Assembly (NCBI GenBank): GCA_011049195.1
Contig: DSCG01000004.1
Location: forward strand, 1-47,943
DNA length: 47,943 nucleotides
Direction of reading: 5' to 3'
From: an archaeon
Lineage (GTDB): Archaea; SpSt-1190
Positions 26,281 to 41,606 of this stretch are shown here, in pieces (positions within the stretch are counted from its first letter, which is position 1; each line of letters starts with the position of its first letter). The notes beneath the pieces are model-generated. The model was given only the letters and a program-made list of their open reading frames with translations, had not been told where the DNA came from and ran no database searches. Both the position numbers and the translations under genes were made by a program.

Positions 26281-26424
26281 GTGACCGCTTGAAAATCGGA
26301 AACCAAAGCGGGGAGGTCGCAGTCAAATGGACAGTCAGAGGGAGAAGCTGGTGGCTGTGACGGGAAAGTGGAGCAGAGTGCGGAGCGTGGTTTCACGCAG
26401 GGATACACTGTAGGAAGTGAAAAG

Positions 26425-27543
26425 ATGATGATTGGTGAATGGGAGCTGAAATTGAATCGGGAGTTTGGCAGGAAGGTGGCCAAGTGGTCGGCCTGGGTTG
26501 CAGGTCTGATGCTTTTTCTGGCGATGACCTGGCAGGTGGGAGTCATTCACTTTGAAAAAGTCCAGCGAACCCCTGCGACCTCTTGTGGCAATCTGGTCTG
26601 TGAAGGGGGGGAGGAACTGGTTTGTCCTGATTGCGTCCCTGGGACGGTGCTGGTAAATCAGGAGCCTATCCTGAACCTGAAAGTTGACAAGGGTTATATT
26701 TACTATTCTTACTGCACCACCGTCAGGTCAGGCAAACAGGTCCTGCGGATTTACCGGATGACCACGGAGGGTCTGGGCAGGAAGCTGTTTTATGAAGGAG
26801 AGCTGGCGGAATGCACCAACGACCTGCTTGTGGATGACCGTCTGGTTTATGTGGCGGGCAGGGAAACCAACAGCTCCCCTTTCCGTATTTTTGGTATCTC
26901 CCTAACAAACGGGGAAAGGGTGACTCTGGCCGAAATCAGGCCGGGCAAATTCAACGAAACCTTTCACCATATGATGAAGGATGACTACATGCTCTACTGG
27001 ACCACTCTCACGGCAGAGGGACAGGGTCAGACCCGGGTCTACCGCCTCGGGGATGAAGGACAGGAGCTTTACATGGTCCTGTCGGAAGGCGGGGTTTCCA
27101 GGGACATTATCTACCATCTCAAAGACGGGGTGCTTTACTATGCCTATTCAGGGTGGAATTCCTCAGAGGAAAATCTGAACAAGGGAATCGCCCTGGCTTT
27201 CGGCAATAACAGGCTGGTGCAGACCGACCGGACCCCTGACCAGCTCAGATGGGTGGCCTCAGGCAGAACCCTGGACCAGCTGGCGACTCTGACCAACACC
27301 ACCAACCTGCCAAACATCTACAGGTGGTCGGAGCTGTTTTATTTTATGCCGGAAAGGGAGAGGAGTGTATATGACAGGGTCTTCAGACTCAACCTGCAGA
27401 CTGACCAGGCCGAGCTTTTCATATCCCCGCCATTCCAGAACCCTGACCAGTGGACGGACCTGAAAGTGGATTTTGATGATAGGTATGTGTATTACCTTTA
27501 CCGCGGGCCCTACACTTTCATAGCGAAAAAGCTCATGGGTTAA
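26425..27543 (+). CDS. Membrane-anchored hypothetical protein with repeated YY-type (beta-propeller-like) motifs
   Basis: TM WSAWVAGLMLFLAMTW, then a Cys-rich stretch CGNLVCEGGEELVCPDC. Recurring motifs: YIYYSY, LVYVAG, MLYWTT, VLYYAY, YVYYLY. Start placed at MMIGEW. Confidence 0.5.
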   Translation: MMIGEWELKLNREFGRKVAKWSAWVAGLMLFLAMTWQVGVIHFEKVQRTPATSCGNLVCEGGEELVCPDCVPGTVLVNQEPILNLKVDKGYIYYSYCTTVRSGKQVLRIYRMTTEGLGRKLFYEGELAECTNDLLVDDRLVYVAGRETNSSPFRIFGISLTNGERVTLAEIRPGKFNETFHHMMKDDYMLYWTTLTAEGQGQTRVYRLGDEGQELYMVLSEGGVSRDIIYHLKDGVLYYAYSGWNSSEENLNKGIALAFGNNRLVQTDRTPDQLRWVASGRTLDQLATLTNTTNLPNIYRWSELFYFMPERERSVYDRVFRLNLQTDQAELFISPPFQNPDQWTDLKVDFDDRYVYYLYRGPYTFIAKKLMG

Positions 27544-27558
27544 TTTCCGACCTCAAAA

Positions 27559-27567
27559 GTTAAAAAC
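27559..27567 (+). promoter_or_regulatory. TATA-like box for tRNA-His
   Basis: GTTAAAAAC is centred about 27 nt upstream of the tRNA 5' end. Confidence 0.4.
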
Positions 27568-27590
27568 CATAAAGCCGGAAGGGTTGTGAT

Positions 27591-27665
27591 GGCTTGGGTG
27601 GTGTAGTCTGGTTAGCACGGGGGACTGTGGATCCCCCAGCCCGGGTCCGAATCCCGGCCCAGGCC
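27591..27665 (+). tRNA. tRNA-His (anticodon GTG) with genome-encoded G-1
   Basis: Hand-folded cloverleaf. G-1 (27591) pairs with C73 (27665). Acceptor stem gcttggg/cccaggc. D stem gtgt/gcac with loop agtctggtta. Anticodon stem gggga/tcccc with loop ctGTGga. 4-nt variable loop. T stem ccggg/cccgg with loop tccgaat. No encoded CCA and no intron. Confidence 0.9.
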
Positions 27666-27685
27666 CAACGGAAATCCGTTGACAC
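27642..27685 (+). repeat. Direct repeat copy 1: tRNA-His T-arm, 3' acceptor strand and 20 nt of 3' flank
   Basis: CGGGTCCGAATCCCGGCCCAGGCCCAACGGAAATCCGTTGACAC. The 3' flank contains the small hairpin AACGG-aaat-CCGTT. Confidence 0.95.
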
Positions 27686-27757
27686 TTTTGACCGCCTTCG
27701 CTCACGCCACGCGCTCGGCGGTCAGTGGGGGTCTTAAAGGGATGAAGCCCCTTACTT

Positions 27758-27801
27758 CGGGTCTGAATCCCGGCCCAGGCCCAACGGAAATCCGTTGACA
27801 C
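27758..27801 (+). repeat. Direct repeat copy 2 (43 of 44 identical), 116 bp downstream of copy 1
   Basis: CGGGTCTGAATCCCGGCCCAGGCCCAACGGAAATCCGTTGACAC, with a single C-to-T difference. No matching 5' acceptor strand lies upstream, so this is not a complete tRNA. Confidence 0.95.
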
Positions 27802-27820
27802 GGTCGTAAGGGGGTAAATC

Positions 27821-27849
27821 CTCTTACCTCGGGTCCGACCTGTCCCGAG
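27821..27849 (+). repeat. Degenerate third copy of the tRNA-3'-like element
   Basis: CTCTTACCTCGGGTCCGACCTGTCCCGAG aligns with CCCTTACTTCGGGTCTGAATCCCGG of copy 2. It forms the hairpin CTCGGG...CCCGAG. Confidence 0.6.
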
Positions 27850-27896
27850 TCGCAGGAGCATGCAAAAACCCATAAAGACCTAAAAGGTTGCATGAC

Positions 27897-28373
27897 ATGG
27901 AGGAACAACTGCTCCGCAGTATGGGTTTTGGAGTGACTTCAGGAGTCATCACCACCCTCGGCCTGATAGTGGGTTTGGATGCCTCCACCGGCTCCCGCAT
28001 GGTGGTGCTGGGGGGTATATTGTCTATCGCCATCGCCGACGCCCTGTCAGATGCCACAGGCATGCACATCTCGGAGGAGGCGGTTTCGGGGGAAGGTGAA
28101 AAAATCTGGGGGGCTATGGGACTGACCTTCCTTTTCAAATTGCTGATGGCCCTTACATTCACCGTCCCCGTGGTCTTCCTGACGTTGCAGACGGCGGTGG
28201 TAGTCAATATAGTATGGGGCCTGTCGGTTCTGGCCGTGCTCAGTTGGAGGCTGGCCCGTCACAAGGGAGAAAATCCTTGGTTTTCCGTAGGCGAACACCT
28301 GGCAATTGCTCTTGGAGTGGTGGTTATCACCCGGTTGGTCGGCCTTTGGATAAAGGGTATTTTCGGTGGCTGA
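27897..28373 (+). CDS. VIT1/CCC1-family (DUF125) membrane protein, putative Fe/Mn transporter
   Basis: GFGVTSGVITTLGLIVGL and SIAIADALSDATG motifs plus C-terminal TM helices. The ATG at 27897 is preferred over the TTG at 27888. Confidence 0.65.
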   Translation: MEEQLLRSMGFGVTSGVITTLGLIVGLDASTGSRMVVLGGILSIAIADALSDATGMHISEEAVSGEGEKIWGAMGLTFLFKLLMALTFTVPVVFLTLQTAVVVNIVWGLSVLAVLSWRLARHKGENPWFSVGEHLAIALGVVVITRLVGLWIKGIFGG

Positions 28374-41505: not shown

Positions 41506-41528
41506 CGGGGGGTCAAGGGGGGCGACTC

Positions 41529-41587
41529 GTCCCGAGTGCGAAGCACGAGGCTAGCTTGAGGGCCAGTCCCGAGTGCGAAGCACGAGG
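41529..41587. repeat. Two identical 22-nt direct repeats, 37-bp period
   Basis: GTCCCGAGTGCGAAGCACGAGG occurs at 41529-41550 and 41566-41587. Each can fold as a GTGC-gaa-GCAC hairpin flanked by tandem G-A/A-G positions and C-G pairs. Both are followed by CTTGAG. The flanking GGGGGC (41517-41522) and GCCCCC (41592-41597) could close a larger structure. Confidence 0.9.
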
Positions 41588-41606
41588 GATAAGCCCCCTT
41601 GAGAGG

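Follow-up and report, generated by a model that had tools for sequence, protein, structure and literature searches.

How does the 3' end of a tRNA gene come to be repeated a short distance downstream of a gene that is itself intact, and what kind of event leaves such a copy behind? The question is raised by the tRNA-His(GTG) gene in the 47,943-nt stretch of archaeal DNA analysed here (contig DSCG01000004.1 of assembly GCA_011049195.1; hereafter the window). The window is part of a metagenome-assembled genome (MAG) from the phylum Undinarchaeota, referred to below as G000, with 59 contigs totalling 694,928 bases and a completeness of 87.5%. A first-pass annotation had offered two readings of the repeat, the footprint of an integrase or a decayed or split tRNA 3'-half gene. 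We consider the chances to be about even that the tRNA-His block is instead a short, decaying head-to-tail array, and that it represents one case of a phylum-wide process by which cargo-less units are added, at the DNA level, to the ends of tRNA genes.

The block is built from the following features.

27592 to 27666, forward strand: intact tRNA-His(GTG), called by ARAGORN (anticodon gtg) and matched by Rfam RF00005 at 27592–27665 with 54.5 bits; G-1 lies at 27591.
27642 to 27685, forward strand: copy 1 of the repeat, which takes in the tRNA's T-arm, 3' acceptor strand and discriminator as well as 19 nt of trailer (hairpin ACGGAAATCCGT, then TGACAC), from sequence comparison.
27667 to 27728, forward strand: GACAC module, consisting of a short hairpin against the tRNA end, TGACAC and the stem-loop GACCGCC...GGCGGTC (27690–27723); top match of our covariance model R1 (67.8 bits).
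27727 to 27757, forward strand: hairpin GGGGG...GCCCC and linker TTACTT, directly 5' of copy 2 and holding a TATA-like CTTAAAG (sequence and unit alignment).
27758 to 27801, forward strand: copy 2 of the repeat, with a single mismatch (C to T, in the T-loop), from sequence comparison.
27802 to 27849, forward strand: unit 3, a shortened spacer GGTCGTAAGGGGGTAAATCCTCTTACCT, homologous to the end of the first spacer, followed by the degenerate T-arm-like CGGGTCCGACCTGTCCCGAG (unit alignment; weak R1 match at 27783–27815).

The gene is the one that the first pass had placed at 27591–27665, the offset arising because G-1 was counted there, and ARAGORN finds no second tRNA-His in the assembly. The 44-nt direct repeat is equally real: its two copies, 25 nt of tRNA-His plus 19 nt of trailer, lie 116 nt apart, differ at one position and were matched in none of 100 shuffles. 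Between them are 72 nt of non-coding hairpins, among which the stem that had been pointed out earlier does form (GACCGCC at 27690–27696 with GGCGGTC at 27717–27723) and belongs to a multi-copy, covarying family. As had also been observed, no 5' acceptor strand precedes copy 2. The hairpin and linker before this copy may loosely resemble the anticodon arm and variable loop of tRNA-His. Rfam 15 matched the block with RF00005 on the tRNA itself only, copy 2 not being recognized as tRNA-like even at E <= 1, and Tandem Repeats Finder made no call at the block.

Aligned unit by unit, the block has the layout A-B-A-B'-A', in which B' (27802–27829) is a shortened homologue of the end of B and A' (27830–27849) is a degenerate T-arm-like piece. 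In front of the T-arm, both later units have CCCCTTACTT or CCTCTTACCT together with a GGGGG...CCCC hairpin. A degraded third copy had been proposed at 27821–27849; its beginning, CTCTTACCT-CGGGTCCGA, matches the start of copy 2 well, but the remainder aligns weakly and its tail, GTCCCGAG, is also similar to another repeat module. That tail (window positions 27841–27860) is the start of a 37-nt hairpin repeat, GTCCCGAGTGCGAAGCACGAGG..., which is found in about four tandem copies behind tRNA-Leu(CAA) (C16:17075-17286), right before a tRNA 3' fragment, and twice more in the window at 41506–41589. Another peculiarity of the gene is its T-loop, TCCGAAT (27649–27655), which carries C in place of the expected U55. 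Four G000 tRNAs have C55 (GTCCGAA or GTCCAAA), namely His, Gly(GCC) on contig C26, Ala(TGC) on C7 and Thr(GGT) on C34; U55 is otherwise universal, and the tRNA-His genes of the relatives G006 and G003 have the canonical GTTCAAA.

The tRNA-His block is not an isolated case. ARAGORN reports 44–45 tRNAs in G000, 44 of which were used for the statistics; the first or last 12 nt of each tRNA were searched for with up to one mismatch, 3' copies being sought within 400 nt downstream. For 15 of the 44 tRNAs the gene's own last 12 nt recur downstream, compared with 8 of 1856 non-cognate tRNA pairs (0.4%). The repeats are strictly polar: the last 12 nt were found neither inverted downstream nor repeated upstream (0 in both cases), and the first 12 nt recur upstream of 7 of the 44 tRNAs and downstream of none. 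With looser matching 22 cognate 3' repeat pairs were recovered, of which 19 have their right edge at the discriminator (+0 to 3 nt). On the left the repeats begin within the T-loop or close to it, 13–25 nt from the 3' end, and the T-loop is often one base shorter (TTCAATCC). The 3' fragments at tRNA genes are devoid of CCA, and at the other tRNAs most of them are also missing the T-stem's 5' strand. In all, 20 or more different tRNAs of this 0.7-Mb genome are affected.

Two further properties concern arrays with trailers or several copies. At His (19 nt) and Leu-GAG (42 nt), trailer sequence has been duplicated together with the tRNA end, as tandem duplication predicts. Where several copies are present, the best-preserved one is in most arrays that proximal to the tRNA (His, Pro-TGG, Leu-GAG, Val-CAC and Met), the Glu-TTC array being an exception. 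The tRNA-Pro(TGG) gene probably has three or four fragments, provided that the end of contig C4 joins that of C42. Many G000 contigs terminate within tRNA-end repeats.

The same architecture extends over the phylum, for which 17 species genomes were available in our collection; relatives were surveyed at their 30 best tRNA loci each. Copies of a tRNA's own last 12 nt were found downstream of 5/31 tRNAs in G003, which belongs to the same family, of 9/34 and 8/36 in G006 and G008, two members of genus g7 within that family, and of 11/34 in G015, from another family of the phylum. The control, the complete genome of an archaeon of another class (G022), had none (0/34). The share of surveyed tRNAs with copies thus ranges from a sixth to a third, in genomes of 0.6–1.1 Mb. 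Several G015 arrays are perfect tandem repeats of spacer plus fragment, with units of 53–75 nt in up to four copies.

At the tRNA-His gene, the cognate fragment of G003 ends 97 nt beyond the tRNA, that of the family relative G001 lies about 60 nt downstream, and G015 displays a tandem duplication with a 54-nt period; the spacers differ among the genomes carrying a copy, and G006 has no copy of the 3' end. The relatives therefore do not share one conserved structure of the kind that, according to the first pass, would speak against a scar. Turnover is visible even between congeneric species. The tRNAs of G006 and G008 are 97–98% identical, yet copies at Leu-GAG and at Val-GAC are present in only one of the two genomes, the Gly-CCC spacers differ in content, and in the syntenic intergenic region of tRNA-Val(GAC) the entire module content has been replaced. 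Since the trait is shared across the phylum but differs between species, it is old at the level of the phylum, with single units that are young and rapidly replaced.

The spacers at the tRNA ends of G000 are 45–130 nt long (rarely 232 nt), contain no credible open reading frame (ORF) and no integrase fragment, and are mosaics of a few hairpin modules. Spacers following unrelated tRNAs are 75–95% identical over 40–100 nt, and none of the modules corresponds to an Rfam family. The GACAC module present at tRNA-His shows compensatory changes in 6 of 9 pairs in an alignment of 14 copies, and a homologue with a compensated stem is located on contig C42. At E <= 1e-4 the R1 model recovered 13 G000 copies, each with a tRNA or tRNA fragment as its neighbour; relaxing the threshold to E <= 1 gave 23 matches, the tRNA neighbour not having been checked for every weak one. 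Outside G000, the R1 search detected the module in genus g7 only. It is oriented one way downstream of tRNAs and as the reverse complement in 5' leaders, so that its hairpin end always faces the tRNA. The second main component is a 30-nt palindrome containing a run of four to six T, followed by ACCAAAA, of which G000 has 39 copies. This TATA-like cassette opens many spacers and is also found about 25–30 nt before the starts of tRNAs or 5' fragments. Other hairpins lie directly 5' of fragments and of full tRNA 5' ends (for example GGT-CCCGCTTCGTTAAGCGGG, GGTGTC-GGAAC...GTTCC and GAAGGGGCGAAGCCCCTTC). Altogether, dispersed repeats amount to 18.4 kb of G000 and form 167 repeat islands, 65 of them within 500 nt of a tRNA and a further 52 at contig ends. 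A module common to the family relatives was found in Candidatus Undinarchaeota MAGs and also in MAGs labelled Micrarchaeia or Altiarchaeota DPANNHV; two of these loci are the G003 and G001 loci.

Many G000 tRNAs are, in addition, preceded by structured leaders of 50–70 nt between an AACTAC-like start region and position +1 (e.g. C7:3838-3897 and C26:2922-2985). These contain a stem-loop with tandem G-A pairs (C-GAGC-loop-GAGC-GAA-G), resembling a kink-turn, and a hairpin abutting +1. Loss of RNase P was considered as the cause of these leaders and rejected, as the genome contains an RNase P RNA. Two other ideas on the modules were likewise discarded: within a gene, the leader module is not complementary to the trailer module, as a processing stem would require, and a supposed inverted 'anti-T-arm' covarying with the local tRNA proved to be a constant part of a module (GGGGTT...), there being no inverted cognate copies.

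How might such arrays arise? Each unit would consist of a hairpin-module spacer and a terminal segment of the local tRNA, bounded by T-loop and discriminator if it lies 3' of the gene and by position 1 and D-loop if it lies 5'. New units would arise beside the tRNA, older ones being pushed outward, where they decay. Only events leaving one intact tRNA would survive, which would account for the strict polarity. The most likely mechanism would be partial tandem duplication or ectopic recombination by template switching, with the outer breakpoint at hairpin bases and the inner one in the conserved T-loop or D-loop; small palindromic modules would also move between loci. As the T- and D-loops are the only stretches common to all tRNAs, inner breakpoints located there, together with outer ones at hairpin bases, suggest template switching or short-homology recombination. 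A structure-specific enzyme would give the same pattern of breakpoints, and a trans-acting recombinase is possible. We infer this mechanism, and also that the fragments themselves are functionless.

Two different origins were considered and set aside. Reverse transcription primed by a tRNA does not account for fragments without CCA, which are copies of the gene and not of the mature tRNA. Duplication of whole genes in tandem followed by random decay is contradicted by the distribution of the pieces, 5' pieces never being found downstream and 3' pieces never upstream.

Several considerations weigh against a tandem array grown by duplication. Flanks repeat along with the fragment, as expected of slippage, at the His, Leu-GAG and G015 arrays, but at most of the remaining loci what follows the fragment is unlike what follows the tRNA. 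Simple tandem duplication is thus insufficient alone, and insertion or ectopic exchange of modules is also needed. Because the MAG is 87.5% complete and its contigs break in repeats, a recombinase gene could be unassembled or reside on a virus or plasmid. Spacers with a TATA-like palindrome and T-runs could make the units transcription units of their own, which would argue for function, and the compensatory changes that keep the hairpins paired indicate that some constraint acts. Finally, repeats from the T-loop to the 3' end of a tRNA are exactly the footprint of classical attachment (att) sites located in the T-loop.

This last point is the basis of the alternative in which the units are scars of viruses or plasmids that integrated at the T-loop by means of tyrosine integrases, accumulated by tandem accretion and were then reduced by deletion to their attP arms, so that cargo-less remnants resembling cis-mobilizable elements (CIMEs) persist between the attL and attR repeats. 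We regard it as unlikely. Known attL/attR arrangements of tyrosine integrases, including tandem accretions, CIMEs and tycheposon satellites, share with the present loci the direct repeat of the tRNA 3' end, the retention of an intact tRNA and the stacking of units, mostly with the older ones farther out, and upstream 5' fragments would be expected from insertions in the opposite orientation. Moreover, tRNA fragments left by integration have been documented in archaea, where they confuse annotation (bioRxiv 10.1101/2022.07.05.498093). The first-pass reading of an integrase footprint thus captured part of the picture, a direct, att-type duplication of the tRNA 3' end of which the farthest unit is decaying, but the event it envisaged is not isolated, the copies are separated by hairpin spacers, and neither an integrase nor an attP or distant attR was found to go with them. 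The loci differ from att systems in that no integrase gene or remnant was found, there is no cargo and the spacers are non-coding hairpins of 45–130 nt; in affecting between a sixth and a third of the tRNAs surveyed, unrelated ones sharing the same modules; and in comprising 5' fragments with duplicated leaders and some perfect short tandem arrays. Each of the at least 20 tRNAs hit in 0.7 Mb would have needed a matching attP, and the perfect tandem arrays of G015 look like the product of slippage, not of serial integration.

Searches for the enzymes and partner sites of such an integration history gave little. None of six recombinase families was detected in the 87.5%-complete G000: there were no matches to PF00589, PF01797, PF01867, PF00239 or PF01541 (tyrosine recombinase, Y1 transposase, Cas1, serine recombinase and GIY-YIG, respectively), and for PF07282 (TnpB) only a sub-threshold match to its zinc ribbon was obtained. 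PF00589 is also absent from 8 of 9 family relatives, although an integrase could have been carried by a mobile element missing from the MAG. Small GIY-YIG ORFs are present in four relatives, with no tRNA within 1.5 kb of them. Three multi-copy protein families of G000 were inspected, two of toxin-antitoxin-like pairs and one of radical-SAM proteins, the other groups of paralogues being unannotated. One two-gene pair, among the largest multi-copy families of the genome, is present in four copies (C2:337-1195, C3:73-955, C3:18908-19796 and C32:6628-7555) and encodes a small helical HEPN-like protein followed by a nucleotidyltransferase-like protein, an arrangement resembling toxin-antitoxin systems. 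As for partner sites, the genome has no distant attR for tRNA-His, no attP-like copy of the tRNA-His end was found on viral contigs, and the 37-mer searched for is absent from the metagenome contigs. Scans of metagenomes by DNA pattern and by protein returned no strain variants or empty sites. A candidate for a distant attR, the sole other 14-nt match in the genome (contig C51), was rejected, as it lies inside a coding frame.

Rather unlikely, in our judgement, is that the units are maintained as functional small RNAs or cis elements, for instance as RNAs shaped like tRNA 3' ends (hairpin, T-arm and free 3' acceptor strand) that serve as external guide sequences, as decoys for tRNA-processing enzymes, or as terminators and insulators of strongly transcribed tRNA genes. 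A run of T is a terminator signal in archaea. The TATA-like cassette with ACCAAAA that opens many spacers is placed, at about 25–30 nt before the starts of tRNAs or 5' fragments, like a TATA box and proximal element, and with its T4–T6 run as a terminator many units could be self-contained transcription units. Hairpin pairing preserved by compensatory changes, the persistence of the architecture across the phylum and the fold of the His trailer, which is somewhat better than that of shuffled sequence (z = -2.7), are consistent with a function. Nevertheless, palindromic DNA repeats covary even when they have no RNA function, outer copies decay, congeneric species differ in the presence of copies, the same tRNA has different spacers in different genomes, and no Rfam match was found. 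Modules occur in both orientations relative to transcription, so that a strand-specific RNA motif cannot be what is conserved, and the His unit is without the TATA palindrome cassette.

Related to the above, but more far-reaching, is the proposal that a process of Undinarchaeota, either recombinase-free or driven by a new enzyme, stacks palindromic terminator-promoter cassettes at the ends and in the introns of tRNA genes, thereby creating again and again, next to genes that stay intact, 5' and 3' pieces with transcription of their own that would be living intermediates in the origin of intron-containing and split tRNAs, the fragments perhaps acting as guides or decoys for RNase P or RNase Z. 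We consider this improbable. Two tRNA genes miscalled by ARAGORN deserve mention here. tRNA-Thr(CGT) (C13:11981-12094, forward strand) and tRNA-Arg(CCT) (C22:95-219, reverse strand) have introns at position 37/38 that consist almost wholly of the T-run palindrome and ACCAAAA cassette, and an exon-intron helix is present in both. Elsewhere this cassette is found at promoter distance from tRNA starts. Each of the two genes could be transcribed in two neighbouring halves and would then be a nascent split tRNA. Outside the phylum, the palindrome GGGGTTTGGAAAGGGGCGGAGCCCCTTCC, which precedes 3' fragments in Undinarchaeota, directly follows the anticodon in tRNA-like 5' halves of uncultured archaeon SRP141559_co1_39 and a Micrarchaeia MAG (loci L053, L057, L059, L062, L063, L065 and L068). 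There, in MAGs that are likewise DPANN, it seems to belong to long introns of tRNA genes that are heavily interrupted.

Very improbable is a role for copy 2 as an alternative or true 3' exon of tRNA-His, joined either by removal of an intron reaching from T-loop to T-loop or by trans-splicing. DPANN archaea tolerate non-canonical introns, copy 2 retains a complete T-arm and 3' acceptor strand, and the two interrupted G000 tRNAs described above have repeat-cassette introns. Yet copy 1 already completes a normal tRNA, fragments at other tRNAs mostly lack the 5' strand of the T-stem, and inspection of the putative His splice sites revealed no bulge-helix-bulge, a systematic search not having been made. 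Nor was any 5' fragment of tRNA-His found elsewhere in the genome. Split and tri-split tRNA genes are known from Nanoarchaeum equitans and Caldivirga maquilingensis. The resemblance to them lies in pieces with flanking hairpins of their own, and possibly their own promoters, in a DPANN archaeon; the difference is that here pieces of only about 15–25 nt decay beside an intact parent gene and have no partner half. An intact, single gene and the absence of a matching 5' half speak against a split tRNA-His, the alternative suggested initially; the same absence removes what had been named as a second observation against a scar. Chimeric assembly of strain variants is hardly credible, for although this is a 59-contig MAG in which many contigs end in repeats, the same architecture recurs with other sequences at over 20 contig-internal loci, and four other genomes, assembled independently, have it as well.

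The array of cargo-less units may also be compared with repeat families that are not tied to integration at tRNAs. Repetitive extragenic palindromic sequences (REPs) and bacterial interspersed mosaic elements (BIMEs), Rickettsia palindromic elements (RPEs) and repeats resembling MITEs (miniature inverted-repeat transposable elements) are likewise short, GC-rich intergenic hairpins in many copies, with compensatory changes, fast mosaic turnover and both orientations. The modules described here differ from these in being concentrated at tRNA ends and in the duplication of the adjacent tRNA terminus, and neither RAYT/Y1 nor another transposase was detected. The tRNA segment that is duplicated is anywhere between 13 and 25 nt long and is therefore not a target-site duplication of fixed length, as would be expected of REPs or MITEs. 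By analogy only, arrays of clustered regularly interspaced short palindromic repeats (CRISPR) also grow in a polar manner at a fixed end, gain a repeat of about 20–40 nt with each addition and have a degenerate distal repeat. At the tRNA ends, by contrast, the spacers are derived from repeat families and not from captured DNA, the repeat is the local tRNA end, and no Cas1 was found.

The surroundings of the tRNA-His block show a further duplication, involving two promoter-like strings.

27562 to 27574, forward strand: string AAAAACCATAAAG, resembling a transcription factor B recognition element (BRE) and TATA box, about 18–30 nt before the tRNA-His start (read from the sequence).
27864 to 27877, forward strand: second string AAAAACCCATAAAG, the putative promoter of a leaderless VIT-family gene with its ATG at 27897 (from the sequence; the VIT1 match is weak).

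These had been described as near-identical strings bracketing the block, and the observation holds: the match is exact and the two sites are the only ones in the 695-kb genome. Similarity between the promoter segments (27562–27600 and 27864–27905) spans about 37 nt, with a score of 34 against a maximum of 28 in 500 shuffles. As the strings are located at promoter distance from tRNA-His and from the VIT-family gene, the block is bracketed by a duplicated promoter segment. The whole tRNA-His block lies between these direct repeats, as if a tRNA cassette had been inserted or a promoter copied. Directly 5' of tRNA-His is a 391-aa ORF (26368–27543, forward strand) that could be assigned to no Pfam or NCBIfam family and for which the metagenome scan returned no relative; it may be an insertion, since in genus g7 a CBS-domain gene directly abuts tRNA-His.

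Our search of the literature returned no description of tRNA-end stacks in Undinarchaeota or other DPANN archaea. A direct repeat of a tRNA end is commonly taken as the mark of an integrated virus or island; in this phylum of ultra-small archaea, such repeats are found in sampled genomes most of which have no detectable integrase gene. On the practical side, such repeats break assemblies, and many contigs of the MAG studied here end in them. If the process is indeed integrase-free, the ends of tRNA genes would be intrinsic hot spots of duplication and module exchange, which would bear on the occurrence of tRNA genes at synteny breaks and on the annotation of tRNA fragments in MAGs. If the cassette shared by tRNA ends and the two tRNA introns truly terminates and restarts transcription, these genomes would provide testable intermediates for the origin of split and intron-bearing tRNAs.

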